Positions 8,588-64,000 of a stretch of DNA of 64,000 bases are shown one piece after another. Location: the NCBI RefSeq assembly GCF_016026235.1, contig NZ_CP065613.1; one strand, 5' to 3'. A program made the position numbers and the translations under genes. The notes below the pieces were generated by a model. It ran no database searches, was not told the DNA's origin, and saw nothing but the letters and a program-made list of their open reading frames with translations. The stretch comes from Escherichia coli. GTDB taxonomy: Bacteria; Pseudomonadota; Gammaproteobacteria; Enterobacterales; Enterobacteriaceae. Within the stretch, counting starts at the first letter, position 1, and each line of letters opens with the position of its first letter.

Positions 8588-9523
8588 TTATTTCACTTCA
8601 ACCACATTCAGCCGTAACTCATCCAACTGATTTTCATCTTCTTCTGGCTGCCAGCCCGCCGGTTGTAGTGGGATCTCTTCGCGATCAAACGCCAGATCAC
8701 CCCCGTTAACCACTTCAGAACCGTGGGTGATGCCTTTGAAATCGAACAGGTTGGTATCGCACAGATGCGACGGCACCACATTCTGCATCGCGCTGAACAT
8801 CGTCTCGATACGCCCTGGATAACGTTTATCCCAGTCCCGCAACATGTCAGCAATCACCTGACGTTGCAGGTTAGGCTGTGAACCGCACAGGTTGCACGGA
8901 ATAATCGGGAACGCTTTTGCATCGGCAAATCGCTGAATATCTTTCTCGCGGCAGTAGGCCAGCGGACGAATAACGATATGTTTGCCATCATCGCTCATCA
9001 GTTTCGGAGGCATACCTTTCATCTTGCCGCCGTAGAACATATTTAAGAACAACGTTTGCAGGATATCGTCACGATGGTGGCCCAACGCGATCTTCGTCGC
9101 CCCCAGTTCCGTTGCGGTGCGATAAAGGATACCGCGACGTAGCCGAGAACACAGTGAGCAAGTGGTTTTGCCCTCTGGAATCTTCTCTTTCACGATACCG
9201 TAAGTGTTCTCTTCAACAATCTTGTACTCAACGCCCAGCTTTTCAAGATACTCGGGCAGAACGTGTTCCGGGAAGCCCGGTTGCTTTTGATCGAGGTTAA
9301 CAGCCACCAGCGAAAAATTGATTGGCGCGCTTTGCTGCAAATTGCGCAGAATCTCCAGCATGGTATAGCTGTCTTTACCCCCGGAGAGGCAAACCATGAT
9401 GCGATCGCCTTCTTCAATCATATTGAAGTCAGCAATGGCTTCGCCCACGTTACGACGCAGACGTTTTTGTAATTTGTTCAGATTGTATTGTTCTTTCTTT
9501 GTAATTTGTTGATTTTCTTGCAT
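8588..9523 (-). CDS. ttcA: tRNA 2-thiocytidine(32) synthetase TtcA; first codons supplied by the prophage
   Basis: 311-aa [27 protein letters not shown]...CLSGGKDS (PP-loop). The att core covers roughly codons 9-17. Everything upstream of 9499, including the promoter, is prophage DNA. Confidence 0.92.
9474..9499. repeat. attL core (TTGTTCAGATTGTATTGTTCTTTCTT)
   Basis: Identical 26-mer at 57929-57954. The flanking sequences remain similar but diverged (ttcA 5' end versus the phage-borne mimic). Confidence 0.85.
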
Positions 9524-11126: not shown

Positions 11127-11348
11127 TCACGAGGACTGAAGTTTCTCGCAATTAAAATTTATCAGTTTTACTTTCTGCTCTCTGGAAACGCCTGCTTCTT
11201 TTTCCCCTGAGAGCATTTTTTCGCATTCTGATTTCGTTAGTTTTGTCTTTGAGTATCTTGTCCAGCTGGCAGGAGAACCACCTTCCTTTTCAATAGTGGC
11301 TGTAATTTTATACATGAACACCTCCATTAATATTTTCCCAAAATGCAC
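11127..11348 (-). CDS. Hypothetical small phage protein
   Basis: 73-aa ORF; an internal start MYKITATIEKEGG is possible. It occupies the position of Rac ydaC/rcbA, but I cannot verify similarity. Confidence 0.4.
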   Translation of the reverse strand: MHFGKILMEVFMYKITATIEKEGGSPASWTRYSKTKLTKSECEKMLSGEKEAGVSREQKVKLINFNCEKLQSS

Positions 11349-17213: not shown

Positions 17214-17268
17214 AATGACATCCTCAAGTGATAAGTTAATTAACTCACCAGCAGAGGTGCTAATCTCA

Positions 17269-17350
17269 TGGGTGGTGAGACGCACAGGGTTAGCACTACC
17301 GGTCACTCGAGAACCCGGCCAGCCTTGCGGCTGCCCCGCACGCCTCACCA
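17269..17350 (-). ncRNA. Candidate C4-like antisense RNA (P1/P7 immI type) with a tRNA-acceptor-like closing stem
   Basis: 10-bp terminal stem UGGUGAGGCG/CGUCUCACCA followed by CCCA. Internal CAGCC-GCAA-GGCUG hairpin. Loop-displayed CUCGAGUGAC and single-stranded GUGCUAACCC are complementary to two sense motif pairs, one upstream and one over the rha RBS. Confidence 0.5.
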
Positions 17351-17379
17351 TAATTTGAATGTGGCTGTGCATTACGCAT

Positions 17380-17402
17380 AAAAAAACCGCTTCAGCGCGG
17401 TT
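17380..17402 (-). terminator. Intrinsic terminator downstream of the a1/b1 motif unit
   Basis: Minus strand AACCGCGCTGAAGCGGTTTTTTT: GC stem followed by a T7 run. Confidence 0.65.
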
Positions 17403-17462
17403 ATGCGCTCGAGTAACTTTCGGGGTGCTAATCCCGGCACCCGTTTTATGAGGTGCAGGTGC

Positions 17463-25920: not shown

Positions 25921-26090
25921 GAAGGAAACAAAACAGAAACAGCAATTGCCGTTACCTGTTGTTACCATGGCAAGTAAACGTATCTCAGGCGAGCGCATTG
26001 CGCCGTTCTGACGCAGATAAACTAGCCTGGATAGATGGTGCTGGCAATAAAAAATAGCGTTTTCTTATCGGTGTCGGTAAGATTGCTGCG

Positions 26091-26258
26091 GGTGCTTGAG
26101 GCTGTCTGCCTCGGGCATGTCACTGTAAGGCAGACAGAGAAAAGCCCCAGTTAACATTACGCGTCCTGCAAGACGCTTAACATTAATCTGAGGCCCAATC
26201 TATGTCTCACAAATGTAGGTTAGCCTCTTACGTGCCGAAAGGCAAGGAGAAGCAGGCT
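26091..26258 (+). promoter_or_regulatory. hok mRNA leader with mok reading frame and 5' tac element
   Basis: GGTGCTTGAGGCTGTCTGCCTCGGG... parallels the remembered 5' end of R1 hok mRNA (GGCGCUUGAGGCUUUCUGCCUC). The 3' segment CCTCAACGCACC (about 26466-26477) can pair with the 5' end (fbi-like). The mok ORF starts at 26202. Confidence 0.6.
26155..26215 (-). ncRNA. Putative Sok-like antisense RNA (coordinates approximate)
   Basis: Expected antisense partner of the mok leader. Hairpin GCGTCTTGCAGGACGC on the minus strand and a weak TTGCCT-17-TAACCT promoter upstream. Not independently verifiable here. Confidence 0.3.
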
Positions 26259-26414
26259 ATGAAGCAGCAAAAGGCGATGTTAATCGCCCTGATCGTCATC
26301 TGTTTAACCGTCATTGTGACGGCACTGGTAACGAGGAAAGACCTCTGCGAGGTACGAATCCGAACCGGCCAGACGGAGGTCGCTGTCTTCGTAGACTACG
26401 AATCTAGAGAGTAA
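26259..26414 (+). CDS. Hok-family type I toxin (HokD/RelF-like)
   Basis: MKQQKAMLIALIVICLTVIVTALVTRKDLCEVRIRTGQTEVAVFVDYESRE (51 aa), with AAGGAG RBS. Near-identical to the remembered HokD. Confidence 0.85.
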   Translation: MKQQKAMLIALIVICLTVIVTALVTRKDLCEVRIRTGQTEVAVFVDYESRE

Positions 26415-28417: not shown

Positions 28418-28443
28418 CTCAATCTGTTATCCGGGGCTATATT
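28414..28443 (+). promoter_or_regulatory. Candidate late promoter PR' (TTGACT-18 nt-TATATT)
   Basis: Overlaps the end of Q. About 60 nt downstream lies an intrinsic terminator, the canonical Q-antitermination arrangement. Confidence 0.55.
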
Positions 28444-28505
28444 CCTCACGCGCCAGCAAAATCTGGCGTCGGGATTGGCGTCCCGGATGTTTACGGAGCG
28501 ATATG

Positions 28506-28527
28506 AGACGCGCCCGCGTCTTTTTTC
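28506..28527 (+). terminator. tR'-like intrinsic terminator
   Basis: GAGACGCGCCCGCGTCTTTTTTC. Confidence 0.7.
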
Positions 28528-28689
28528 ATATCGTTTGCACAGTCTCATTCGCGATTTATGGCGGGCTGTGTGGGGGAGCCGAAAGGCTCGCCGGTTTCCG
28601 TACCCGGTTACGCCAACCCTGCACAGTTCGCCACCAGTTCGATTGGCGTCGTCGGTGGCGATAATTTCCAAATGTACGGAGTTATCGTT

Positions 28690-29455: not shown

Positions 29456-29532
29456 GGCCCTTTAGCTCAGTTGGTCAGAGCGAGCGACTCATAATCGCCA
29501 GGTCGCTGGTTCAAGTCCAGCAAGGGCCACCA
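29456..29532 (+). tRNA. tRNA with CAU anticodon, ileX-like (Ile2 via lysidine, or Met)
   Basis: Cloverleaf with acceptor GGCCCTT/AAGGGCC, anticodon loop CTCATAA, T-loop GGTTCAAGTCC and encoded CCA. Resembles the remembered E. coli ileX. Confidence 0.85.
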
Positions 29533-29533
29533 A

Positions 29534-29610
29534 CCACCACTAGCTCATCCGGATAGAGCATCAACCTTCTAAGTTGACGGTGCGAGGTTCGAGTCCTCGG
29601 TGGTGGGCCA
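29534..29610 (+). tRNA. tRNA-Arg (UCU)
   Basis: Acceptor CCACCAC/GTGGTGG, anticodon stem-loop TCAAC-CTTCTAA-GTTGA, T-arm CGAGG-TTCGAGT-CCTCG and encoded CCA. Confidence 0.85.
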
Positions 29611-29612
29611 GC

Positions 29613-29688
<76 letters not shown>

Positions 29689-29691
29689 TAT

Positions 29692-29766
<75 letters not shown>

Positions 29767-30972: not shown

Positions 30973-31506
30973 ATGAGCGCAAAAATCAAATACGGCCTGT
31001 CGGCTGCTGTTCTGGCGCTGATTGCCGCAGGCGCGTCTGCTCCCCAGATACTTGACCAGTTTCTGAACGAAAAAGAGGGTAATCACACAACGGCATACCG
31101 TGATGGTTCTGGCATATGGACCATCTGTCGTGGTGCCACAATGGTGGATGGTAAGCCTGTCATACCGGGAATGAAGCTGTCGAAGGAAAAATGTGACCAG
31201 GTTAACGCTATTGAACGTGATAAGGCGCTGGCATGGGTGGAGCGCAATATTAAAGTACCTCTGACCGAACCACAAAAAGCGGGTATAGCGTCATTTTGCC
31301 CCTATAACATTGGCCCCGGTAAGTGTTTCCCGTCGACGTTTTATAAGCGGCTGAATGCCGGTGATCGTAAGGGCGCATGCGAGGCGATTCGCTGGTGGAT
31401 AAAAGATGTTGGGCGCGATTGCCGCATACGTTCAAATAACTGCTATGGACAGGTTATTCGTCGTGACCAGGAAAGCGCATTAGCCTGTTGGGGGATAGAT
31501 CAATGA
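30973..31506 (+). CDS. SAR endolysin (GH24 lysozyme, RrrQ-like)
   Basis: 177 aa. N-terminal signal-anchor-release segment [17 protein letters not shown]. Catalytic E-8-D-5-T pattern ([16 protein letters not shown]). Confidence 0.85.
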
Positions 31507-31970
31507 GCAGAGTCACCGCGATTATCTCCGCTCTGGTTATCTGCATCATCGTCTGCCTGTCATGGGCTGTTAATCATTACCGTGATAACGCCATTACCTA
31601 CAAAGAGCAGCGCGACAAAAACGCAAGAGAACTGAAGCTGGCGAACGCAACCATTACTGACATGCAGCAGCGCCAGCGTTCTGTTGATGCACTCGATGCT
31701 AAATACACGAAGGAGTTAGCTGATGCGAAAGCTGAAAATGATGCTCTTCGGCGCAAGCTTGATAATGGTGGTCGGGTGCTCGTCAAAGGAAAATGCCCTG
31801 TGCCAGCCTCAGCCAAAACCTCCAGCGCCTCCGGCATGGGCAATGATGCCACCGTCGAACTCTCTTCAGTTGCTGGACGAAACGTTCTCGGTATCCGGGA
31901 CGGAATTATCCGCGACCAAACAGCACTGAGAACGCTTCAGGAATACATCAATACGCAATGCCTGAATTAA
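31503..31970 (+). CDS. i-spanin Rz
   Basis: ATGA overlap with the endolysin. N-terminal TM ([20 protein letters not shown]) followed by a coiled-coil periplasmic domain. Confidence 0.8.
31723..31929 (+). CDS. o-spanin Rz1, embedded in Rz in the +1 frame
   Basis: Lipobox LIMVVGC and a proline-rich mature part ([18 protein letters not shown]). Confidence 0.75.
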
Positions 31971-32011
31971 TCCCTCTGTATCAAAAACGAACTCAATTTG
32001 TTGGATAGTGA

Positions 32012-32323
32012 ATGAAAATTTATATTGCCGGGCCAATGACGGGATATGAGAACTTTAATCGTGACGCCTTTAATAAAGAGGCAGATCGTTTGTCACGACA
32101 TGGTCACTCTGTCTTGAATCCAGCCACTTTGCCTAATGGTCTGACACAACGTGAATACATGGATATTTGCTTTGCAATGCTTCGTTGTGCGGATGCTATT
32201 TTGATGCTTCCTGGCTGGAAAGCGTCTGCTGGAGCAACTGCTGAGTATCATTACGCATACAAGATGGAGATGCCGGTATTCACTACGCTGAATTACCCGC
32301 CAGCTTGTTCCTCTGCAGTATAA
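32012..32323 (+). CDS. DUF4406-like / nucleoside 2-deoxyribosyltransferase-fold protein
   Basis: 103 aa, MKIYIAGPMTGYENFNRDAFNKEADRLSRHGHSVLNPATLP...ADAILMLPGWKASAGATAEYHYA. Family assignment is from memory of the motif pattern. Confidence 0.5.
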   Translation: MKIYIAGPMTGYENFNRDAFNKEADRLSRHGHSVLNPATLPNGLTQREYMDICFAMLRCADAILMLPGWKASAGATAEYHYAYKMEMPVFTTLNYPPACSSAV

Positions 32324-32683
32324 AAATCTCTTTGTTTCTCGTGTGCGATCGTGGTCGCTCGCTAAATTCCGCGCTGCATCGTCGCCGTATTTCCGCATTA
32401 ACTATGACCGTAGCCCGACGGGGAACTCCTTCTGCGCGAGTGTGCGGGAATAATCAAAAACGATGCACACCGGGTTTTTACCGCGTTTATGGTTCGCGGG
32501 TTTGTCCCTCATGCTCGCCAGTCCTGTGCGGGGGTGGAAGAAACAGGACACTTACACTGATTCTTGTGGGTACGATGCTATTCCTTTCTGGATTATCCCG
32601 ATGTCATTCATGCAGGGCGCTGTATCAGACGTTCGTCATGGCTGTCAGGCTGACGGGTCCTCCCGGTGGGGTGGCCTGCCACG

Positions 32684-32695
32684 GGGCGGGAGCGG
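32684..32695. other. Candidate cosN cohesive-end site (GGGCGGGAGCGG)
   Basis: GACGGGTCCTCCCGGTGGGGTGGCCTGCCACG|GGGCGGGAGCGG|CGCGG aligns with the remembered lambda ends GACGGGTCCTTTCCGGTGATCCGACAGGTTACG|GGGCGGCGACCT|CGCGGG. An AT-rich cosB-like region follows, upstream of terS. Confidence 0.5.
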
Positions 32696-32869
32696 CGCGG
32701 AAAAAGGCTAGTTTTTGAAATTTCATTCGTCATCACCACTACTGTAATGTATTGATATTACAGTGGTTTTATTTTTGTGCTGTCGGTTTTGATTGTTTTT
32801 TGTTCATCACTAACACCGTTTGCCTAAAGTTGTTCGCAAGATGCATGTTTAAAACATTCTGGAGCGGGT

Positions 32870-33363
32870 ATGGATCGAGAGTTAAAAAATCTGACGCTGA
32901 ATATCAGTCAACTGGCGGCACTGTCAGGTGTACATCGCCAGACTGCTGCGGCAAGGCTGCAAAATCTACCCGTTGCAGGGGGCATGAAAGCAACCTCAAG
33001 CTTTATCGGGTGGTTGATATTGTGTCGGCATTTCTGGCATTACCACCGCCGGTTGCAGAAGGCGAAATGGACGCGCATGAGCGCAAAGCCTGGTATCAGT
33101 CTGAACGTGAGCGTCTTAAGTTCGAACAGGAAACGGCACAACTCATTCCGGCCAGTGATGTCAGACGGGAGTTTGCCATCTGGGCAAAAGCGGTCGTGCA
33201 GGTGCTGGAGACATTACCGGATATTCTTGAACGTGACTGCGGTCTGCAGCCTGCCGCTGTGAGCCGTGTTCAGTCCATTATTGATGATCTGCGCGATCAG
33301 ATAGCCCTGCGGGTGACTGAAGCAGGTGCGGATGATGAGGAGGAATTACAGCAGGAGGAGTAA
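32870..33363 (+). pseudogene. Terminase small subunit (Nu1-like), frameshifted at a G5 run
   Basis: N-terminal frame MDRELKNLTLNISQLAALSGVHRQTAAARLQNLPVAGG. The C-terminal frame continues HESNLKLYRVVDIVSAF...DDEEELQQEE*. Adding one G at 32978-32982 joins them, paralleling Nu1 GMPVLRGGGKGNEVLYDSAAVIKW. Confidence 0.75.
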
Positions 33364-35443
33364 TGCTGAATCAGGAAACCGCAAAGGCAGCACGAACCGA
33401 TTCAGGTTATATCCTTCGCGCACCAAGACGAATGCGGGTTGCTGATGCCGTTGCTCAGTATATGCGGGTGCCCATGGGGCAGGGAACTCAGTCCCGTGGG
33501 ATCCGCTGGTGGCACCGTATGTTATTGAGCCGATGAACTGCCTGGCCTCGCGTGAATACGACGCAGTGATATTTGTTGGCCCGGCACGAACCGGCAAGAC
33601 TATCGGCCTGATTGACGGCTGGGTGATTTACAACGTGATTTGCGATCCTGCTGATATGCTGATCATTCAGATGACGGAGGAAAAAGCCCGCGAACACTCC
33701 AAAAAACGACTCGCCAGAACGTTTCGCGTCAGCCCGGAAGTGGTCAGTCGCCTGAGTCCGAACAAAAATGACAACAACGTTTATGACAGAACATTCCTTG
33801 CTGGCAACTACCTGAAAATCGGCTGGCCGTCAGTCAATATCATGTCCTCATCAGATTATAAATGCGTCGCGCTGACGGATTATGACCGTTTTCCGGAAGA
33901 TATTGATGGTGAGGGGGATGCTTTCTCTCTTGCCTCAAAACGTACCACAACATTTATGTCCAGTGGTATGACGCTGGTGGAGAGTTCCCCCGGCAGGGAT
34001 GTGAAGGATGTGAAATGGCGACGGACTTCACCGCATGAGGCTCCACCAACCACGGGGATACTGTCGCTCTATAACCGTGGCGATCGCCGTCGCTGGTACT
34101 GGCCCTGTCCACACTGTGGTGAGTATTTTCAGCCCTGCGGCGATGTGGTTGCTGGTTTCCGTGATATTGCCGATCCCGTGCTGGCAAGTGAGGCGGCTTA
34201 TATTCAGTGTCCTTCCTGTTCAGGACGGATTATGCCTGAACAAAAACGTGAGCTGAACGGACGTGGGGTCTGGTTGCGGGATGGTGAATCCATCAATGCG
34301 GATGGCAGTCGTTATGGTGATCCCAGGCGTTCACGTATTGCGTCATTCTGGATGGAGGGTCCGGCAGCTGCTTACCAGACACTCTCGCAACTCGTTTACA
34401 AACTGCTTACTGCAGAACAGGAATACGAGACAACCGGAAGTGAAGAAACACTCAGGGCGGTTATCAACACCGACTGGGGATTACCTTATCTTCCCCGCGC
34501 CAGCATGGAGCAACGAAAAAGTGAACTGCTTGAGCAGCGGGCAGAGCCTGTTCCTCCCCGCTGCGTGCCGGATGGTGTTAATTTCCTGGCGGCGACAGTG
34601 GATGTGCAGGCGGGACGTCATCGCCGTTTTGTGGTTCAGGTAACGGGTTATGGTTGCCGTGGCGAACGCTGGATTATTGATCGTTACAACATCACGCAGT
34701 CATTGCGTTGTGACAACAACGGAGAAAGCCTGCGAATTGATCCTGCTGGTTATCCTGAGGACTGGGATGTCCTGCTGACGGATGTTTTTCATAAAAGCTG
34801 GCCGTTGGCCTCCGATCCTTCTCAACAAATGCGACTGATGGCAATGGCGGTGGACTCCGGCGGTGAAGACGGGGTCACTGATAATGCCTATAAATTCTGG
34901 CGTCGTTGCCGTCGTGATGGCCTTGGTAAACGTATTTACCTGTTTAAGGGCGACAGCATCCGGCGCGCAAAACTGATCACCCGTACATTCCCTGATAACA
35001 CCGGACGAACGGGCCGACGGGCGCAGGCCGCAGGTGATGTGCCGCTCTGGCTTCTTCAGACGGATGCCCTGAAAGACCGGGTGAATAACGCGTTATGGCG
35101 TGACTCGCCAGGTCCCGGCTATGTGCATTTCCCTGACTGGCTGGGGAGCTGGTTTTACGACGAACTGACGTATGAAGAGCGGAGCAGTGACGGGAAATGG
35201 AGTAAGCCGGGTCGAGGTGCCAACGAAGCTTTTGACCTGATGGTGTATGCCGAGGCTCTGGTCATTCTGCATGGTTACGAGAAAATTCAGTGGCCGGATG
35301 CGCCGGAATGGGCATGCAGGGAAACCTGGCTGGAGCGTGTCAGGGACGATGCCGGACTGTCAGCCTCGCCGGAGCCGGTATCCGTGTCCGTTAAAAAAAG
35401 AAACGAAAAAAAGTGGTGCCTGATGAAGAAAACCCATGGGTGA
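33363..35443 (+). pseudogene. Terminase large subunit (GpA family), frameshifted near the N-terminus and possibly again near the C-terminus
   Basis: TAATG coupling to terS gives the start at 33363 (MLNQETAKAARTDSGYILRAPRRMRVADAVAQYMRVPMG..). The main frame resumes ..GNSVPWDPLVAPYVIEPMNCLAS...GPARTGKT...WYWPCPHCGEYF. One extra G at 33476-33479 joins them. One extra A at 35406-35412 would give ...EKKVVPDEENPWVTSGGWL* ending in a GTGA overlap with gpW. Confidence 0.8.
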
Positions 35444-35453
35444 CTTCCGGAGG

Positions 35454-35672
35454 ATGGTTGTGAACCAGAATGATATTGAAGCCATGATCCATCGTTATAT
35501 CAATGCGGAAATGGCAGTGCTGGACGGAAAGTCCATTACTTTTAATGGTCAGCAGATGACCATGGAAAACTTATCCGAGATCCGACAGGGGCGGCAGGAG
35601 TGGGAACGTCGCCTTGCGACTCTGGCTGCGCGGCGACGGGGGACGCCGGGCTATAAACTGGCGAGGTTCTGA
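35454..35672 (+). CDS. Head-tail joining protein gpW-like
   Basis: ..NQNDIEAMIHRYINAEMAVLDGKSITFNGQQMTMENLSEIRQGRQEWERRLATLAARRRGTPGYKLARF. The C-terminus is like lambda W (..RRRGPAGFYV). The start could be ATG 35454 or GTG 35460. Confidence 0.7.
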   Translation: MVVNQNDIEAMIHRYINAEMAVLDGKSITFNGQQMTMENLSEIRQGRQEWERRLATLAARRRGTPGYKLARF

Positions 35673-53917: not shown

Positions 53918-54117
53918 CAGAAGCTGCGGCACGTCGTATGCAGGAACGTGCCGCGGTTGGCTGGTAAACTTTCGATAGTGCGAGTATTGAATGATTTCTA
54001 GGCGTTATCGATTTTACGTATTTTTTGCATGATAGAATTCGTACCTCCTCCCAACGACCTTCCATGGCTTTCCGGACTTCTGTAGGCTGGCGGACGATGC
54101 TGTCCTCGGATGTTGTG

Positions 54118-54975
54118 CTAATTGGGTGATAACAGATCCTGTGTATGGGCGTTTCCCTTTGTGCGTGCGTTGATGCTGGTAACGGTAAACGTCATGATGA
54201 ACACGACCGCGAATAAGACGACAATCGTCGGAGCTGGTGCGCTGTCGATAAAAAAGGACAGCCAGACACCAGTCATTGACACTATTACCGATATGCCAGT
54301 CGCCAGTAGGAGCGCAATATGAAAGCGTTGTGTCAGGAGTACTGCAATGGCGCCAGGCGCAATGAGCAGAGAAATAGAGAGAATGATACCTACTGCTTTC
54401 AGCGTCGCCACAATGGTCAGGGAAACCATGCACAGCAGCCCATAATGCAGCCATCTCGTATGCAAACCGCTTACCTGCGCCTGTTGATAATCAAAGCTGA
54501 ACAGCAAAAAATCCCGCCATTTTACGCTAATAACAAGTGTAACCAGCCCGGCAATAATCACCGTCTGGATTATATCGCCGATGGTTATCCCGAGCATGTC
54601 GCCGAAAAGAATATGGTCAAGATGTACGTCTGGTTTGATTGCAATATACAAGATCAGACCTGCGGCAAACATGCCAGAAAAAACAATCCCCATAACTGTA
54701 TCTTGCTTGATTCGGCTGTTGTCTTTCAGGTATCCCGTCGCCACCGCGCAGAATACTCCGGCGACGAATGCCCCTGTAGCCAGAGGTAACCCCAGAATCC
54801 AGGTAAGCACGATGCCAGGAAAAACCGCATGACTCATCGCGTCACCCATCAGTGCCCAACCTTTCAGGACCAGAAAGACCGACAGCAGCGCACAGGGTAT
54901 GGAAACTACCAGTGAAATCAGCAGTGCGTGACTCATAAAGGTGAACTGCAGTGGCTCCAGTAATAATGCCATCAT
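54118..54975 (-). CDS. sitD: Mn/Fe ABC transporter permease SitD
   Basis: 285-aa polytopic ABC-3 family permease, last gene of a four-gene operon with overlapping starts and stops. Confidence 0.88.
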   Translation of the reverse strand: MMALLLEPLQFTFMSHALLISLVVSIPCALLSVFLVLKGWALMGDAMSHAVFPGIVLTWILGLPLATGAFVAGVFCAVATGYLKDNSRIKQDTVMGIVFSGMFAAGLILYIAIKPDVHLDHILFGDMLGITIGDIIQTVIIAGLVTLVISVKWRDFLLFSFDYQQAQVSGLHTRWLHYGLLCMVSLTIVATLKAVGIILSISLLIAPGAIAVLLTQRFHIALLLATGISVIVSMTGVWLSFFIDSAPAPTIVVLFAVVFIMTFTVTSINARTKGNAHTQDLLSPN

Positions 54976-55829
54976 GAGCGATCCTCCAGCGCTTTATGCG
55001 CACGCCGACGATTTGCCAAAAGTCCATGGGTGGGCGCAAATACAAATGCTAAAAGAAACAGCAGTGTCTGCGCCACCACGATGATTCCACCTGTCGCGCC
55101 GTCCAGAAAGTAACTGACCCACGCGCCGAGGAAACTGGTTACACTGCCAATAGTTACAGCAATTATGAGCAGGCGGGGAAAACGATCGGTTAACAACCAT
55201 GCTGTTGCACCGGGAGTCACCACCAGACAGATCACCAGAAAGGCACCAACCGTTTGCAGCGCCGCAACGGTCGAAACCGACAGCAGGGTGAAGAAGAGGA
55301 TTTTTAATCTGCCCGGATGTAATCCAATAGCACGGGCGTGATTCTCGTCGAAAAAGGTCACCATAAGATCTTTCCATTTGAAAAAAAGCACGATGATCGA
55401 GAGAATGCCAATGATAGTGAGTTGCAGGATATCCGCCGGATCGATTGCCAGAATATTGCCCAGGACGATGGTCTGAATGTTCACGGATGTCGGGTTCAAT
55501 GACACCATAAACAGCCCCAGGCCAAAAAAGGACGAGAAGATCAGGCCGATGATGGCATCTTCTTTTAAGCGGGTGCGTTGGTTAAGAAACAGCATGCTGC
55601 CCGCTGCCAGTCCGCCGGAAAAGAAGGCTCCCAGAGAAAACGGAAGCCCCAGCATATATGCCCCCGCAACACCCGGGACAATAGAGTGCGACAGCGCATC
55701 GCCAATCAGCGACCAGCCTTTTAGCATCAGATAGCATGACAGGAAAGCGCAGAGACCGCCGACCATTGCCGAGACCCACATCGCATTGAGCATATATTCA
55801 TAGCTGAAGGGTTCCAGTAGCACGTTCAT
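54972..55829 (-). CDS. sitC: Mn/Fe ABC transporter permease SitC
   Basis: 285-aa ABC-3 family permease. Confidence 0.88.
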
Positions 55830-56653
55830 CTTGCTTCCCTCTGCACCGCTGACGGTCGATGTGCCACAAAAGGGCGTTCATCGTCAGTAATAATGCTTTC
55901 TTCCGAGCCGTTAAGTGTGACATGGCGCAGTACGCCGCTAAAAGCCAGCTCCAGGTTCTCGGCTGTAAAAGTGGTGTCTGTCGGCCCGCTTGCCAGGACG
56001 GTGCCTTTGACCATGACCGTATAATCGCAAAATGTCGTGACTGAGCCGAGATTGTGCGTTGAGACAAGCATCGTTTTGCCTTCCGCGCGTAACTCCCTCA
56101 ACAGGCTGATGATTTTCGCTTCGGTTTTCACATCAACGCCGGTAAAAGGTTCATCCAGCAGGATCACATCACCCTGCTGTGCAATCGCTCTCGCCAGAAA
56201 GACGCGTTTCTTTTGTCCACCGGAAAGCTCGCCGATTTGACGATGGCGAAAATCCACCATATCGACACGTTCCAGCGCATCGGTGACAATCTGACGATCC
56301 CTCTTTTTGGCTATACGCAACATACCCATATGCCCATAGCGGCCCATCATCACCACATCTTCCACCAGTACAGGAAATGACCAGTCAACCTCTTCTGACT
56401 GAGGGACGTAGGCAACCAGGTTTTTCTGTAGCGCCTGTCGCGTGGGAATACCCAGAACAGATATCTTTCCGCTGGTCAGACGCACAAATCCCATAATCGC
56501 TTTAAACAACGTCGATTTTCCGGAACCGTTTACCCCAACCAGAGCGGCAATAGATCCACTTGGTACTGTGAAGGATGCATCGCGCAGTGCTGTGTGCCCG
56601 TTACGCCAGGTGACAGTAACATCATTAACGACAATGCCTGCAGATTGCATCAT
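55826..56653 (-). CDS. sitB: Mn/Fe ABC transporter ATPase SitB
   Basis: 275 aa with Walker [10 protein letters not shown], signature LSGGQKKR and Walker B ILLDEP. Confidence 0.9.
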
Positions 56654-57567
56654 TATTTCTCCCTTTTCCCGGCTTTAATTCCCTGTACCAGCGTACTGGT
56701 AGTAACCTTAAGAAGGTCGATATACGTAGGTACCGGGCCGTTTTCTGTGCTCAGGGAATCGACATAGAGCACACCGCCGTAGTGTGCGCCGGTTTCACGC
56801 GCAACCTGACGCGCTGGTTTATCGGAAATCGTACTCTCGCTAAAGACTGCCGGGATATGATTTTTCTTAACTATATCAACAACCTTACGTACCTGCTGCG
56901 GTGTTCCTTGTTGATCGGCATTAATCGGCCACAGATAAAGCTCTTTTAGCCCCAAATCGCGTGCGAGATAAGAAAAAGCCCCTTCACTGGTGACCATCCA
57001 TCGCTGATTCTCAGGGAGTTCCGTAATCTGCTTACGCAGGGGGGCAAGGGTTTGGGTAATCTTGGCTTTATAAGTATCGGCATTACGTTGGTAGGTTTGT
57101 GCATTTGCCGGATCGTATTTTATCAACGCATCACGAATATTATCGACGTAAATCAGAGCATTATCTGGCGACATCCATGCATGGGGATTAGGTTTGCCCT
57201 CATAGGGTCCTTCGGTGATCCCTACTGGCGTCACACCCGAAGAGACAATTACTTCTGGAACCCCATTGAGATGCTGGTAAAAGCGTTGGAACCACAATTC
57301 CAGATTCATACCATTGGCGAGAATCAGTTGTGCCCCCTGCGCACGTTTAATATCGCCAGGGGTAGGCTGATACTCATGAATTTCTGCACCAGGCTTGGTT
57401 ATGGATGAGACTTCTGCAGCATCTCCAGCCACGTTTTTGGCCATATCCGCGATGATGGTAAATGTTGTAATGACCTTGAATTTTTCAGTTGCACTTGCCT
57501 GAAATGCGATCGAGCAGGTGAGGGCGAGGCACCCCAAGAGCATGGTTACTTTTTTTATTGAGTGCAT
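56653..57567 (-). CDS. sitA: Periplasmic Mn/Fe-binding protein SitA (cluster A-I SBP)
   Basis: 304 aa with a signal peptide; ZnuA/PsaA-type fold motifs (..[10 protein letters not shown].., ..NPHAWMSP..). Confidence 0.9.
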
Positions 57568-57924: not shown

Positions 57925-57978
57925 TTACTTGTTCAGATTGTATTGTTCTTTCTTGCTAATTTCTTGATTTTGCGACAT
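57925..57978 (-). pseudogene. ttcC: Displaced original 5' end of ttcA (ttcC-like remnant)
   Basis: Minus strand ATGTCGCAAAATCAAGAAATTAGCAAGAAAGAACAATACAATCTGAACAAGTAA = [17 protein letters not shown]. Compare the TtcA N-terminus [17 protein letters not shown]. Confidence 0.8.
57929..57954. repeat. attR core (TTGTTCAGATTGTATTGTTCTTTCTT)
   Basis: Identical to 9474-9499. Confidence 0.85.
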
Positions 57979-58121
57979 TTAAAAGCGACTCAATTCGTTA
58001 TATGGCATCAGAAGAGTATGCGTCATGCCGGAACGCCCAGCATAAGAAATCTGATATAAAAACTGTGGCGTGTATGGTACGGATTAGAGGGGAAAATGTC
58101 AGCACATTTGCGAAATGAATC

Positions 58122-58146
58122 AAAAAGCCCGCAGCAATGTGCGGGC
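58122..58146 (-). terminator. Intrinsic terminator after uspF
   Basis: Minus strand GCCCGCACATTGCTGCGGGCTTTTT. Confidence 0.75.
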
Positions 58147-58153
58147 GTTAGTG

Positions 58154-58669
<516 letters not shown>

Positions 58670-58695
58670 TTAGATCAAAGGAGGAAGAATAAGCA

Positions 58696-58719
58696 GAAAA
58701 AGCCCGCCATAACAGCGGG
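58696..58719 (-). terminator. Intrinsic terminator after ompN
   Basis: Minus strand GCCCGCTGTTATGGCGGGCTTTTT. Confidence 0.75.
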
Positions 58720-58728
58720 CAGGAGGAT

Positions 58729-59862
58729 TTAGAACTGATAAACCAGACCTAAAGCGACAATATCATCGGTAGAGATGCCGTTGGCAGCGTAGAAACTGTC
58801 ATCTTCATCCAACAGGTTGATTTTATAGTCAACATAAGTGGACATGTTTTTATTGAAATAGTAAGTCGCGCCAACATCGGCGTATTTAACCAGATCTTTA
58901 TCATCAACACCTGCCGGGTTGTCTGCACCACCGGCAGCGTGCAGGTCACGGCCTTTAGACATCAGGAAAGAGACTGCCGGACGCAGACCAAAATCAAACT
59001 GGTACTGTGCAGTGACTTCAAAGTTCTGGGTTTTGTTTGCAACAGCATAATCGCTGTCGCCAAACGGGGTCATATTACGCGTTTCTGAATACATGGTTGC
59101 CAAGTAAATATTGTTAGCATCGTATTTTAGCCCAGCAGTCCACGCGTCTGCTTTATCACCACCCGCCGCAGTATGGTTAACCTGGTCATTGGTGCGGTCA
59201 GAAGAGGTGTATGCCGCACCAGCGCTAAAGCCCATGCCTAAATCATATGTTGTGGAAAGACCCCAGCCGTCACCGTTTTCATGGCGAACATCACGTCCGT
59301 TGTTGGTGCCTTCCTGACCATTACTGGCACCTTCGTTGTTACCTTGATACTGCACCGCGAAGTTCAGACCATTTACCAGACCGAAGAAATCAGTATTACG
59401 ATAAGTCGCGACGCCATTGGCACGACCAGTCATAAAGTTGTCTGCATTGGTATAAGAGTCACCGCCAAATTCAGGCAGCATATCGGTCCAGCCTTCGATG
59501 TCGTACATTACGCCATAATTACGTCCGTAATCGAAAGAACCGTAATCTGAAAATTTCAGTCCGGCAAATGCCAGACGGGTCCATGACTGGTTTTTTGAAG
59601 ATTCAGTGTTGTTTGCCTGAATATTGTATTCCCATTGACCGTAGCCAGTAAGTTGATCGTTAATTTGGGTTTCGCCTTTAAAACCCAGACGCGCATAGCT
59701 CTGGTCGCCATCTTTCGCTGAATTATCAGAAAAATAATGCAGGCCATCAACTTTGCCATACAGATCTAATTTGTTGCCGTCTTTATTATAAACTTCGGCT
59801 GCATGTGCAGCACCTGCGCCGAGCAGGGCAGGAATTAAAAGTGCCAGTACTTTGCTTTTCAT
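58729..59862 (-). CDS. ompN: Outer-membrane porin OmpN
   Basis: 377 aa with signal peptide [21 protein letters not shown], general porin motifs and a terminal ..LGLVYQF. Confidence 0.9.
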
Positions 59863-60089
59863 TGAATAAATCCTTTAGTTATTTTATTTGCCTTTTATCC
59901 CCATTTCGGGGAGTGAAAACATCCTAAAGGAGAAGTTCAGTTAGCCGATAAATATCATTTGTTACGCCTTAAGTAAAACCTTAATCAAAAAATTCCTCTG
60001 AAATGATAATAAGTCTGGTGAATGTATCGAAGATAATACATACAAAATAAAAATTATACTTTTAATTTTCTATACGTTATTCTGCGCGG

Positions 60090-60198
60090 GTTATATGCCT
60101 TTATTGTCACAGATTTTATTTTCTGTTGGGCCATTGCATTGCCACTGATTTTCCAACATATAAAAAGACAAGCCCGAACAGTCGTCTGGGCTTTTTTT
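60090..60198 (+). ncRNA. micC: MicC small RNA
   Basis: GTTATATGCCTTTATTGTCACAGATTTTATTTTCTGTTGGGCCATTGCATTGCCACTGATTTTCCAACATATAAAAAGACAAGCCCGAACAGTCGTCTGGGCTTTTTTT matches the remembered K-12 MicC. Located in the ompN-ydbK intergenic region. Confidence 0.9.
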
Positions 60199-60227
60199 TA
60201 GAATTGGATAATCCTTATCCAGAGCAT

Positions 60228-63200
60228 TTAATCGGTGTTGCTTTTTTCCGCTTTTCCGGCCATTTGTGCCAGGAAGTCATAGCGTTTTTGCAAATCAGCT
60301 GCAGCATCTTTCCATAACTGTTCTGCCACTTCTGGCTGCTGAGAATTCAGACGACGGAAACGTTGCTCGTGAAGTAACGTTTCTTCCAGTGCTTCTGACG
60401 GCGGGCGTGAATCCAGCGCCAGCGGCAGTTTGCCTTCATCGGCACGACGCGGATCGAAGCGATATAGCGGCCAGAAGCCGGTAGCTGTGAGTTGGCGCAT
60501 CTGGTCATGGCTGAGTGCCAGATCGTAACCATGCTCTTCACACGGGCTATAAGCAATGATCAGCGATGGTCCCGGATACGCTTCCGCTTCCTGAATCGCT
60601 TTCACCGTCTGGTTCAGTTGCGCGCCGAGAGAAATCTGCGCCACATAAACATGACCGTACATCATCATACTGACGCCAAGATCTTTACGCGCTTTACGTT
60701 TGCCGTGCTCGCCAAATTTAGTTACTGCACCCAGCGGTGTCGCTTTCGACGCCTGACCACCGGTGTTGGAATAGCATTGCGTATCCAGCACCAGAATGTT
60801 GACGTTTTCCGTCAAACTCAATACATGATCCAGACCGCCAAAGCCGATATCGTAAGCCCAGCCGTCGCCACCAATCAGCCAGATTGATTTTTCTACCAGT
60901 GCATCTGCGTCACGCAGCAGTTCATGTGCTTCGGCAACATCGTTGAGTTGCTGGCGTAAAGCTGCAACCTGTTCACGACGAACCTCTGGCGTGGCGTCTG
61001 ATTTCAACGCAGTCAGTAATTCCGCCGGGATTTTATCGGCAAATTGATCCAGCAGACGCAGCACGCGGACACGGTGTTGATCGACCGTCAGGCGGAAACC
61101 AAGGCCAAATTCGGCATTATCTTCAAATAGAGAGTTCGCCCATGCCGGCCCACGACCGTTGGCATCGGTGGTATACGGTGTAGAGGGCAGGTTACCGCCA
61201 TAAATTGAAGAACAGCCGGTGGCGTTAGCGATCAACATCCGGTCGCCATAGAGCTGAGTCAGCAATTTAATATACGGCGTCTCGCCACAACCGGAGCAAG
61301 CACCGGAATATTCAAACAGCGGTGTAATCAGCTGCGATGTACGAATATCAATACGTTCCAGTTTGCTACGGTCGATTTCTGGCAGGTTGAGGAAGAAATC
61401 GTAATTGATTTTCTCTTCTTCGACATGTTCCAGGCGCGACATCATATTGATGGCTTTAATCTCTGGATTCTGACGGTCTTTCGCCGGGCAAACTTCGACG
61501 CACAGGTTACAACCGGTGCAATCTTCCGGAGCCACCTGCAAGACATATTTCTGCCCGCGCATATCACGCGATTTCACATCCAGCGAATGCAGGCTGGCAG
61601 GGGCGTTTTCCATCGCTTCAGGCGGTACCACTTTTGCGCGAATAGCTGAGTGTGGGCAAGCGGCGACGCAGTGGTTACATTGGGTACAGAGTTCCTCTTT
61701 CCAGATGGGGATCTCTTCGGCGATATTGCGTTTTTCCCAGCGAGTGGTGCCCATCGGCCAGGTGCCGTCTGGCGGCAGCGCCGAAACGGGGAGGGCATCA
61801 CCAAGCCCGGCGAGCATCGCAGCGGTTACGGTTTTCACGAAATCAGGGGCGGCATCGGAAACCACTGGCGGTCGATTGGCGCTGTGCGGATTTACCGGTT
61901 GCAACGGAACTTCTTCTACGGATTCACGCGCCAGCGCCAGAGCCTGCCAGTTGCGTTCCACCAGATCCTGACCTTTGCTGCTGTAACTTTTGGCAATCGC
62001 ACCCTGCAATTCTGCGAGGGCGCTATCGCCAGGCAGAATTTGTGTCAGATGGAAAAAAGCCATCTGCATGACGGTATTAATACGGGCCGCCAGGCCACAT
62101 TCGCGGGCGATTTTCGCCGCGTTAATCACATAGAAGCGCGCTTTTTTCTGATTTAGCACGGCCTGAACTTCCTGCGGCAAGCGCGACCACACTTCATCTG
62201 CGCTGTACGGCGTGTTGAGCAGGAAAATGCCGCCAGGTTTTAAACGCTCAGCCATCTGATATTTATCGATAAACTGCAACTGGTGGCAGCCAACAAAATC
62301 AGCCTGGGAAATGAGATAAGCGGAACGAATCGGCTGTTCGCTCACGCGAAGGTGAGAAACCGTCAGGCCGCCCGCCTTTTTGGAGTCGTAAACAAAATAG
62401 CCCTGTGCGTACCACGGCGTGGAATTACCGATAATCTTGATATTGTTTTTGGTCGCGGAAACGCTGCCATCACTACCAAGGCCATAAAACAAGGCTTCCA
62501 GTTTCGCCGAGTTTGGCAGGGTGTTTTCCGGCAACGGCAGTGACAGATTGGTCACATCATCGTAAATACCAACCGTAAAGCGCGCTTTCGGTTTAGCCGC
62601 GTTGAGCTCGGCAAATACCGCCAGTACACAGTCCGGGCCAAATTCTTTGGATGAAAGACCATAGCGCCCACCAATGATACGGGGCAGAGTTTCGCGCTCG
62701 CCATTATTAAAGGCTTCTGCCAGTGCGGTCATTACATCCAGATAGAGCGGTTCTGCCTGGGCACTGGGTTCTTTGGTTCTGTCCAGTACCGCCACGCTGC
62801 GTACGGATCCCGGCAGAGCTTGCAGCAAGTGTTTGGCGGAGAAGGGACGGTACAGGCGAACTTTCAGCACGCCAACTTTTTCGCCACGGGTTAGCAATTC
62901 ATCAACCACTTCTTCACAGGTGCCAATGGCAGAGCCCATCAGGATAATCACCCGTTCCGCTTGCGGATGCCCGTAATATTCAAACGGCTGATACTGACGA
63001 CCTGTCGCGGCAGAGAAATCATTCATCGCCTGTTCAACATGGTCATAGACCGCGTTGTACCATGGGTTGGTGGCTTCGCGAGACTGGAAATAAGTGTCAG
63101 GATTCGCGGACGTACCGCGGATCACCGGATGTTCCGGGTTGAGTGCCCGGGCGCGATGAGCATCAATTTCGGCCTGCGGCATGAGATCAAGAATCGTGTC

Positions 63201-63752
63201 ATCGGCCAGCGGGACAATTTTGTTGATTTCGTGGGACGTGCGGAAACCATCAAAGAAATGAATAAATGGCACGCGGCTCTTCAGCGTCGCGATGTGCGAA
63301 ATGAGAGCAAAGTCTTGCGCTTCCTGGACGTTTGCTGCACACAACATCGCGCAACCCGTCTGGCGCACCGCCATGACGTCGGAATGATCGCCAAAAATAG
63401 AGAGTGCATGTGTGGCAACGGTACGTGCCGCTACATGCAGGACAAACGGTGTGAGTTCGCCTGCCAGTTTGTACAGCGTCGGGATCATCAGCAGCAAACC
63501 CTGCGATGACGTAAACGATGTTGAAAGGGCACCCGTCTGCAAAGCGCCATGCACGGTAGCGATAGCACCCGCTTCCGACTGCATTTCAACCACGCGTGGT
63601 GTGTCTCCCCAAACGTTCTTCAAGCCGTTTCCGGCCCAGGCATCAGCCTGTTCTGCCATCGTGGAACTGGGGGTAATAGGGTAGATGGCGATAACTTCAC
63701 TGGTGCGAAACGCCACCGAAGCAACCGCGCCATTACCGTCAATAGTAATCAT
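60228..63752 (-). CDS. ydbK: Pyruvate:flavodoxin/ferredoxin oxidoreductase YdbK (NifJ-like)
   Basis: Intact 1174-aa ORF with two 4Fe-4S ferredoxin motifs (CTQCNHCVAACP, CTGCNLCVEVCP) and a TPP-binding C-terminal domain (GGDGWAYDIG). Confidence 0.93.
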   Translation of the reverse strand: MITIDGNGAVASVAFRTSEVIAIYPITPSSTMAEQADAWAGNGLKNVWGDTPRVVEMQSEAGAIATVHGALQTGALSTSFTSSQGLLLMIPTLYKLAGELTPFVLHVAARTVATHALSIFGDHSDVMAVRQTGCAMLCAANVQEAQDFALISHIATLKSRVPFIHFFDGFRTSHEINKIVPLADDTILDLMPQAEIDAHRARALNPEHPVIRGTSANPDTYFQSREATNPWYNAVYDHVEQAMNDFSAATGRQYQPFEYYGHPQAERVIILMGSAIGTCEEVVDELLTRGEKVGVLKVRLYRPFSAKHLLQALPGSVRSVAVLDRTKEPSAQAEPLYLDVMTALAEAFNNGERETLPRIIGGRYGLSSKEFGPDCVLAVFAELNAAKPKARFTVGIYDDVTNLSLPLPENTLPNSAKLEALFYGLGSDGSVSATKNNIKIIGNSTPWYAQGYFVYDSKKAGGLTVSHLRVSEQPIRSAYLISQADFVGCHQLQFIDKYQMAERLKPGGIFLLNTPYSADEVWSRLPQEVQAVLNQKKARFYVINAAKIARECGLAARINTVMQMAFFHLTQILPGDSALAELQGAIAKSYSSKGQDLVERNWQALALARESVEEVPLQPVNPHSANRPPVVSDAAPDFVKTVTAAMLAGLGDALPVSALPPDGTWPMGTTRWEKRNIAEEIPIWKEELCTQCNHCVAACPHSAIRAKVVPPEAMENAPASLHSLDVKSRDMRGQKYVLQVAPEDCTGCNLCVEVCPAKDRQNPEIKAINMMSRLEHVEEEKINYDFFLNLPEIDRSKLERIDIRTSQLITPLFEYSGACSGCGETPYIKLLTQLYGDRMLIANATGCSSIYGGNLPSTPYTTDANGRGPAWANSLFEDNAEFGLGFRLTVDQHRVRVLRLLDQFADKIPAELLTALKSDATPEVRREQVAALRQQLNDVAEAHELLRDADALVEKSIWLIGGDGWAYDIGFGGLDHVLSLTENVNILVLDTQCYSNTGGQASKATPLGAVTKFGEHGKRKARKDLGVSMMMYGHVYVAQISLGAQLNQTVKAIQEAEAYPGPSLIIAYSPCEEHGYDLALSHDQMRQLTATGFWPLYRFDPRRADEGKLPLALDSRPPSEALEETLLHEQRFRRLNSQQPEVAEQLWKDAAADLQKRYDFLAQMAGKAEKSNTD

Positions 63753-64000
63753 ATGACACCCTTACATTGCGCAAATGAGGGGCGCACGAAATTGCTGCGC
63801 GCCCAGTAGTAATCCTTCAATTTTAGCAAATGGCTTTCTTCTGCATTTTCGCTTTTGTGTCCCCCACATCAGCGTAATGAATGTTTTGATCAAACAGAGG
63901 GCAAAAAAATAGCCATAAAAAAGTAAAAATGCGGGGCAACGCGCAGGACAGCTCTCGACGCCGCCCTCTGTGCTGCCTATTATTTATGGCGGTGTCGTTT

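Follow-up and report, generated by a model that had tools for sequence, protein, structure and literature searches.

The cos region of the prophage

The stretch of DNA analyzed (the window, 64,000 nucleotides of the Escherichia coli contig NZ_CP065613.1) hosts a lambdoid prophage of ~48 kb, residing at the Rac/ttcA locus of the chromosome. Within this element, the region spanning residues 32655-32814 is very probably the cos packaging site (cosQ-cosN-cosB) of the prophage, a site of an ordinary and already known kind; as judged from sequence, the assignment is essentially right. It draws on sequence homology, gene context and the pattern of conservation among relatives, and on public phage records whose ends coincide with the predicted one. 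The subsites cosQ and cosN are arranged as follows (slashes mark the predicted nicks):

32655..32661, plus strand: cosQ (GGGTCCT), the subsite for termination of packaging, which ends 22 bp ahead of the top-strand nick
32682..32697, plus strand: cosN, nicking site CG/GGGCGGGAGCGG/CG, which aligns with lambda CG/GGGCGGCGACCT/CG
32683/32684 (top strand) and 32695/32696 (bottom strand): predicted nicks
32684..32695, plus strand: predicted 12-nt 5' cohesive end GGGCGGGAGCGG, with homologous ends in public phage records

The position of the two nicks, and the 12-nt 5' overhang which they would leave, are predicted with high confidence. A lambda-like cos site had been located here by the first-pass annotation, and the claim is borne out by the position of the element, the public records, the conservation over 80 relatives, and the uniqueness of the motif in the window. 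The strings on which the claim was founded reside at the coordinates given for them (GACGGGTCCTCCCGGTG at 32652-32668, CCACG at 32679-32683, GGGCGGGAGCGG at 32684-32695, CGCGG at 32696-32700); ...GCTGACGGGTCCTCCCGGTGGGGTGGCCTGCCACG terminates at 32683, and CGCGGAAAAAGG... runs from 32696. The alignment with the cos regions of lambda, phage 21 and Gifsy, suggested at the same time, was carried out, and the sites line up. In a base-for-base comparison the window cos is collinear with those of lambda, 21, 434 and Gifsy-1, and all five sequences have in common GGGTCCT, ACG/GGGCGG, a CG after base 12, and a GCTA..TTT.TGAAA.TTT spacer.

The lambda terminus used in the first comparison was correct except for its first base, which is T, not G; the true termini, as fetched from the lambda record, are ...TTTACGGGTCCTTTCCGGTGATCCGACAGGTTACG / GGGCGGCGACCT / CGCGGG (CGCGGGTTTTCGCTA...). 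The cohesive end had been said to differ from that of lambda at 4 positions, and the differences are in fact 5 (7 C>G, 8 G>A, 9 A>G, 11 C>G, 12 T>G). Seven of the 12 bases are identical in the window 12-mer and lambda GGGCGGCGACCT, bases 1-6 are all kept, and CG dinucleotides lie beside both nick positions (32682-32683 and 32696-32697), in agreement with the proposal of a 12-nt cohesive end at 32684-32695. Selection acts, in lambda-like phages, on cosQ, on the flanking CG and on the first six bases of the cohesive end; bases 1-6 and the flanking CG are conserved, and bases 7-12 vary freely (Feiss et al., PMC4669245). Since all the differences found in the window fall within bases 7-12, the half of the end found by these authors to be tolerant and naturally variable, they have been counted in favor of the cos assignment. 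Gifsy-1, the end of which differs from lambda at residues 8, 9 and 11, is included by the same authors among lambda-like cos phages (PMC4669245), and the Gifsy-1 end as read here agrees with the three differences that they state. The cosQ sequence of the window is identical to the annotated 7-bp cosQ of phages 21 and 434, and the same sequence is found in lambda.

Over both strands of the 64-kb window there is a single occurrence of the motif GGGTCCT-N15-25-CGGGGCGG, which was matched by none of 100 dinucleotide-preserving shuffles. A scan of the window for ACGGGGCGG-N6-CGCGG, up to two mismatches being allowed, retrieved the cos site as the only occurrence. When the lambda cos region (-40 to +70) was aligned, with gaps, to sliding segments of the window, the top local score (21) was obtained at the cos site; the segments at 54041 (score 19) and 7321 (score 17) are chance matches on inspection. 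The score discriminates poorly, and for this reason the motif test and the homologous records were relied on instead. A full-text literature search for GGGCGGGAGCG yielded only G-quadruplex and unrelated papers.

Conservation among relatives

Variation at the site was monitored in 80 viral contigs encoding a small terminase subunit (TerS) identical to the TerS of the window, once the reading frame of the latter had been repaired (see below). In 80/80 contigs ACG and CGCGG are separated by 12 nt, and the cohesive-end 12-mers are distributed as follows:

GGGCGGGAGCGT (...GCGT): 64/80 contigs
GGGCGGGAGCGG (...GCGG, the window allele): 13/80 contigs
single-base variants: 3/80 contigs

Most relatives of the mEp460/569R4 type thus carry T at base 12, at which the window has G. 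The exact 59-nt cosQ-cosN core of the window was found in 9 of the 80 contigs. GGGTCCT is kept in 79/80 contigs, despite variable sequence on both sides of cosQ (examples of the stretches found between cosQ and cosN, or left of cosQ, are CCCGGTGGGGTGGCCTGCC, CCCGGTGGGGGCCCCTGCC and TCTGATGACCTGAGCTCTC). Both CACG/GGGCGG and the right-hand CG are nearly invariant, the exceptions at the flanking CG being one contig with TG and two contigs with CGTGG. The pattern of variation over the 80 relatives matches functional cos subsites. In one sequence (IMGVR_UViG_3300007109_000117) the DNA upstream of terS includes cosN and cosB but no cosQ, and unrelated GC-rich DNA is found left of cosN.

The 1-kb cos region is 94-98% identical to phages 569R4, mEp460, phi458 and Ayreon; among 5426 complete E. 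coli genomes, 1166 contain 80% or more of its length. The TerS proteins of mEp460, 569R4, phi458, Ayreon and many E. coli prophages are identical, or 99% identical, to that of the window.

The region makes part of plus-strand open reading frames (ORFs), which extend from 32305 to 32718 (137 aa) and from 32463 to 32711 (82 aa), and the likeness to cos could in principle be due to chance or to coding constraints. This GC-rich stretch does contain long ORFs, and the automated annotation of related phages puts a 'hypothetical protein' there. Neither ORF has a match in Pfam, however, and in 79 relatives the length of the longest ORF across the nick is anywhere between 21 and 155 aa; moreover, the motif is unique and absent from the shuffled sequences, and conservation tracks the cos subsites, not the codon structure. 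A chance or coding origin of the likeness is accordingly extremely improbable. The view, already held in the first-pass annotation, that the plus-strand ORFs across 32305-32718 are not genes fits these data; both ORFs are by-products of a GC-rich non-coding stretch, and the location of cos explains why they should stay unannotated.

Left of cosQ, a 180-nt segment (32371-32549) has no convincing gene or Rfam match, and is 96-97% identical to a segment found ~120-300 nt from the right end of 2B8, 4A7 and Lambda_4C10, phages with a Nu1-type cos. The likeness suggests a mosaic joint located just left of cosQ.

Ends of public phage records

Phage ends have been placed at the homologous position in three public records. 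The record of phage cdtI (AB285204) starts with GGGCGGGAGCGTCGCGGAAAAAGG, the first 12 nt being GGGCGGGAGCGT, the first of which is the homologue of residue 32684, and ends with ...GGGTCCTTCCGGTGGGGTGGCCTGCCACG (CCACG). The record of phage Tritos (OV696610) also starts with GGGCGGGAGCGT, and ends with ...GGGTCCTCCCGGTGGGGGCCCCTGCCACG (CCACG). In phage LLS (PQ299149) residues 1-12 are annotated as a 5' extended single-strand cohesive site, GGGCGGCGCGCT; according to the LLS paper, this end was deduced from the type of terminase and the putative cos of mEp213 (PMC12315714). The cdtI, Tritos and LLS records are taken as an expert consensus on the position of the end, not as measurements.

Some records depart from the 12-nt pattern. 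The mEp460_4F5 record (LR595868.1) starts 5 nt left of the predicted nick, and 9 nt (GGGCGGGAG) separate ACG from CGCGG; the 9-nt element may be either an assembly artefact at the end of the genome or a real 3-nt deletion. The start of this record was considered, and rejected, as a counterexample to the predicted nick, mEp460 and all the 80 contigs with identical TerS having 12 nt. In VT1-Sakai (AP000400.1), an Stx1 prophage, 11 nt (GGGCGGGCGGG) are found between CACG and CGCGG, and cosQ is 24 nt from the nick; the length or the register of the cohesive end could differ in this element. The Salmonella prophages Gifsy-2 and Fels-1 carry a degenerate cosQ, AGGTACT. Gifsy-2 features an unusual 14-nt sequence (GGTGGCTTCGGGCT) between CACG and CGCGGG, although its TerS is of the DUF1441 type.

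The site could be real, and yet be cut elsewhere than homology to lambda predicts, leaving a shorter or shifted overhang. The large terminase subunit (TerL) is only 24% identical to lambda gpA, and would be anchored by a TerS of a different family; cosQ is spaced from the nick by 22, not 23 bp; elements of 9 and 11 nt separate the flanks in mEp460_4F5 and VT1-Sakai. In addition, 9-nt 5' cohesive ends are reported for Cr-LKS3, a more distant phage with a related, DUF1441-like TerS (PMC9303873). The two bases which flank the Cr-LKS3 ends on each side are reportedly those of lambda, though, so that cutting appears to follow the flanks. In the window, as in 80/80 contigs with identical TerS, CG/GGG and the right-hand CG are exactly 12 nt apart, and the three phage records set the left end at the homologous G. 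Shifted cuts are hence quite unlikely.

The cosB region

The distance from cosN to the start of terS is 186 bp in the window, 190 bp in lambda. The following elements were recognized in this interval:

32696..32723, plus strand: cosN-cosB spacer CGCGGAAAAAGGCTAGTTTTTGAAATTT, homologous to lambda bp 13-40, aligned with CGCGGGTTTTCGCTATTTATGAAAATTT
32726..32739 (+43 to +56), plus strand: candidate R3-like TerS site TTCGTCATCACCAC, at a position analogous to R3 of lambda/21 (+50 to +65)
32741-32748 and 32757-32764: arms of an inverted repeat (ACTGTAAT / ATTACAGT), followed by a T-run, which bracket the consensus for integration host factor (IHF)
32745..32757 (+62 to +74), minus strand: IHF consensus site, equivalent to lambda I1, a perfect match
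32785..32814, plus strand: candidate R2-like GGTTTTGATTG (inverted, degenerate) and R1-like TTGTTCATCACTAAC elements, aligned to Fels-1/VT1-Sakai

The spacer is almost invariant in relatives, and is common to cdtI, Tritos and LLS. An AT-rich segment had been noticed after the cohesive end, and the composition changes indeed from a GC content of 0.80 (32640-32700) to 0.35 (32701-32869).

The IHF site reads TAATGTATTGATA on the plus strand and TATCAATACATTA on the minus strand, and fits the consensus WATCAANNNNTTR. Its orientation is that of I1, which the records of phages 21 and 434 place at +74 to +86; cdtI and Tritos also match the IHF consensus perfectly, at +64. Among 81 sequences variation is confined to the N positions of the site, with no change in TAAT and TTGATA. 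Compared with the annotated I1 and R3 sites of lambda, 21 and 434, the window has its IHF site 12 bp nearer to cosN, and its R3-like site about 7 bp nearer.

The inverted repeat was placed by the first-pass annotation at about 32752-32773; its actual position is 32741-32764, about 10 nt further left. Together with the T-run, the repeat might be an intrinsic terminator, or a palindromic site for TerS, rather than an IHF site. A consensus scan describes it as terminator-like (13 pairs followed by TTTATTTTTG), the repeat lies in the cosB position, and a dimeric helix-turn-helix protein could bind to a palindrome. Only 3 of the 13 pairs, on the other hand, are G-C, and late transcription has to pass through cos to reach the head genes, as in lambda, which counts against a terminator. 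Covariation of the arms was sought as a sign of a structural element, and the arms change one-sidedly in relatives, with no compensation; the fixed bases correspond to the IHF consensus, the variable bases to the N positions. Moreover, cdtI and Tritos, the TerS of which has a different recognition helix, keep the IHF match at the same distance. A terminator or TerS palindrome seems unlikely, and the inverted repeat, since its arms change without compensation and its fixed bases are those of the IHF consensus, is better read as a part of the IHF site, or as incidental to it, than as a hairpin or the main TerS site.

TCATCAC-type R-like motifs are found at +43 to +56 and +117 to +131. In Fels-1 and VT1-Sakai the R3-I1-R2-R1 order of lambda is clearly matched by CATCATCAT, then an IHF-like site, then GATGATGATT (inverted) and TTGTTCATCATC (direct). 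The sequence at the R3 position varies with the recognition helix of TerS. Proteins with a HRQT(A/V)..R. helix (VT1-Sakai, Fels-1, mEp213, LLS) are associated with TCATCATCATCA (TCATCA) at this position; in cdtI and Tritos, which have a HRDTVKKRL helix, the position is occupied by GGCGGCGGC instead. This correspondence, drawn from sequence comparison, supports the assignment of 32726..32739 as a putative R3-like site. Two substitutions in the R2-like stretch are private to the window, and are not shared by relatives.

Terminase genes and late-gene context

The order of lysis genes, cos and terminase genes is the same as in lambda. The genes flanking the site are:

30973-31506, plus strand: lysozyme (Pfam)
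31488-31970, plus strand: Rz (Pfam)
32012-32323, plus strand: DUF4406 protein, nucleoside 2-deoxyribosyltransferase-like (Pfam), the last gene before cos
32870..33364, plus strand: small terminase (DUF1441), with a 1-nt deletion in a G-run at 32978 as read
33363..35466, plus strand: large terminase (gpA family), with 1-nt deletions at 33476 and ~35399; the end is approximate, projected from mEp460_4F5

In the lambda record, bor and unnamed ORFs are found at the position of the DUF4406 gene. Downstream of cos, TerS and TerL are followed by a W-like ORF of the size of W, and by a portal gene of the lambda type. No RNA family was retrieved from Rfam in the interval 32000-33000.

The frame-repaired TerS is 164 aa long, and 100% identical to the TerS of phage 569R4. 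The protein is not of the Nu1 family; it matches instead DUF1441 (PF07278, E=2.7e-41), and has no match to Phage_Nu1 (PF07471). TerL matches both GpA_ATPase (PF05876, E=5.7e-70) and GpA_nuclease (PF20454, E=6.2e-84); its identity to lambda gpA is limited to 24% (E=3e-18). Neither TerS nor TerL is matched by a NCBIfam model, and a PDB sequence search with the TerS profile gave no significant match. Headful (pac) packaging was discarded as an alternative, TerL being of the gpA type and a complete cosQ-cosN being present; terminases of the gpA type are grouped with 5' cos ends in a published classification (PMC12315714).

State of the prophage

Two 43-nt att-like direct repeats, 93% identical (9474-9516 and 57929-57971), bound the element, which measures ~48.4 kb, adjoins ttcA and an integrase gene, and carries RalA. 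The same prophage was searched for in the closest E. coli chromosome, FDAARGOS_943, and the Rac locus of this strain was found empty.

Single-base homopolymer deletions, relative to 569R4, are found at 32978 (terS), 33476 and 35399 (terL), 38455, 40851, 41621, 41641, 50237, 51217 and 51915, and in the ORF list they break up the portal, tape-measure and J genes as well. The cos site could then be a genuine one, but a relic, hosted by a defective prophage, and be cut only when terminase and capsids come from a co-resident or superinfecting phage of matching TerS specificity. The deletions in terS, terL and other late genes, and the split genes, speak for this possibility, as does the host flank (58000-64000), which is 99.9% identical to FDAARGOS_943 in a 6001:6001 alignment with no indel, so that the deletions are unevenly spread over the window. 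Yet nearly all the unpaired indels are one-base homopolymer losses, the signature of errors in long-read sequencing, and prophage late regions, which recur within E. coli genomes at up to 6 places per genome, often escape short-read polishing when repeated. The one-directional, homopolymer-only pattern of the deletions suggests unpolished long-read errors in DNA repeated among prophages. Also, a phage record encodes a TerS 100% identical to the repaired one, and 9 other viral contigs have exactly the cos core of the window. That the site is a relic is a tenable but minority hypothesis, and that this copy of the prophage is genuinely defective is to be given the same modest credit. In both cases the cos sequence is undamaged, and corresponds to a common allele.

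Other features were noted in the element. In the late region, the lysis genes are preceded by four clustered tRNA genes (Met-CAT, Arg-TCT, Thr-TGT, Gly-TCC; 29456-29766). Two C4 antisense RNA/isrK pairs in opposite orientation (17268-17456, minus strand; 28437-28638, plus strand), one of which has a c4-a1b1 target element, resemble the modules which control antirepressors in P1/P7-like phages. The RalA antitoxin small RNA (sRNA) and a sok antitoxin RNA reside within the prophage (11131-11309; 26090-26264). Four minus-strand ORFs at 54118-57567 may be cargo.

Discussion

The cos of the prophage shares with that of lambda the 7-bp cosQ, the ACG/GGGCGG sequence (bases 1-6), CG at both nicks, a homologous right spacer, the orientation of the IHF site, a TerL of the gpA family, and the location between lysis and terminase genes, ~186-190 bp from the start of TerS. 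It differs at bases 7, 8, 9, 11 and 12 of the cohesive end, in the distance of cosQ (23 bp in lambda, 22 in the window), and in the position of the IHF site (+74 in lambda, +62 in the window). The R sequences of lambda (CGTTTCC) are unrelated to the TCATCAC core found in the window, and the Nu1 TerS of lambda is replaced by a DUF1441 protein.

The cosQ-to-nick distance sets apart two groups. It measures 22 bp in the window, cdtI, Tritos and LLS, all endowed with a DUF1441 TerS, and 23 bp in lambda, 21, 434 and Gifsy-1, which have a Nu1 TerS. The Gifsy-1 end (GGGCGGCAGCGT) shares the AGCG right half and cosQ with the window, and differs at bases 7 and 12, in the 23-bp spacing of cosQ, in the Nu1-family TerS and in R sequences similar to those of lambda and 21. 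Within the first group, cdtI and Tritos share with the window cosQ, the 22-bp spacing, CCACG/GGGCGGGAGCG, the CGCGGAAAAAGGCTAGTTTTT spacer, a DUF1441 TerS and a gpA-type TerL. They differ at base 12 (T instead of G), have a TerS only ~40% identical, with a HRDTVKKRL helix, and a cosB which is unrelated to that of the window beyond +35, where GGCGGCGGC and TTTTCACCTG repeats are found. Because both cosB and the TerS helix differ, the packaging specificity of these phages is probably not that of the window prophage. In mEp213 and LLS (putative cos GGGCGGCGCGCT) TerS is a DUF1441 protein 57-58% identical to that of the window (58% in LLS), and cosQ, the 22-bp spacing, the flanks, and TCATCATCATCA at R3 are the same; bases 7-12 are CGCGCT, the distance from the nick to the ATG is reduced to 129 bp, cosB being shorter, and there is no perfect match to the IHF consensus.

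Several data weigh against the assignment of the region as a lambda-type cos site. The spacing between cosQ and the nick is not that of lambda, and the ends of LLS and mEp213 are explicitly inferred (PMC12315714). The 9 and 11 nt found between the flanks in mEp460_4F5 and VT1-Sakai indicate that the length of the overhang may not be fixed in the family. The match between the profiles of TerS and Nu1 is weak (hhalign probability 15%, E=0.0017), though collinear over 140 columns, which include the N-terminal helix-turn-helix and, next to it, a wing-like stretch ('..P V..G....LY'). As TerS does not belong to the Nu1 family, the cosB assignments cannot be transferred from lambda, and the R2-like element is weak in the group to which the window belongs. 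Finally, this copy of the prophage cannot package itself, if the deletions in the late genes are real.

From the likeness to lambda we infer where the DNA would be nicked, and where IHF and TerS would bind. In the mechanism proposed, the DUF1441-type TerS would bind to cosB on concatemeric phage DNA via its N-terminal helix-turn-helix, cosB being made up by the R3-like site near +43 to +56 and by weaker R2/R1-like sites. Bending by IHF at its consensus site (+62 to +74) would position the gpA-family TerL to introduce the two staggered nicks in cosN (32683/32684 on the top strand, 32695/32696 on the bottom strand), and the virion chromosome would carry the 12-nt 5' overhang GGGCGGGAGCGG at its left end. 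The cosQ sequence at 32655-32661 would be required for the terminating cut, when the translocating terminase meets the next cos.

Natural variation of cosN has reportedly been surveyed by Vahanian et al. 2017. Beyond a correct annotation, the finding of cos in this prophage adds little, as this type of cos is widespread, and has already been used to linearise public phage genomes. Still, the location of cos fixes the ends and the gene order of the virion chromosome, and points to the possible cross-packagers of the element, co-resident phages with the same small terminase.

A broader proposal may be formulated, for and against which the odds look even. DUF1441 TerS proteins may define one or more packaging-specificity classes, apparently uncharacterised by experiment, in which cosQ and cosN of the lambda type are retained nearly unchanged, and a different cosB is read, with TCATCAY-type R sites shifted towards cosN by about 7 bp, the IHF site by 12 bp and cosQ by 1 bp. 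If the proposal is true, the G/T polymorphism at base 12, coexisting with identical TerS, would give rise to mismatched cohesive ends upon recombination or cross-packaging, and the DUF1441 family would represent a natural experiment, in which a conserved nuclease site has been coupled anew to a DNA-recognition subunit that is non-homologous or only very distantly related.

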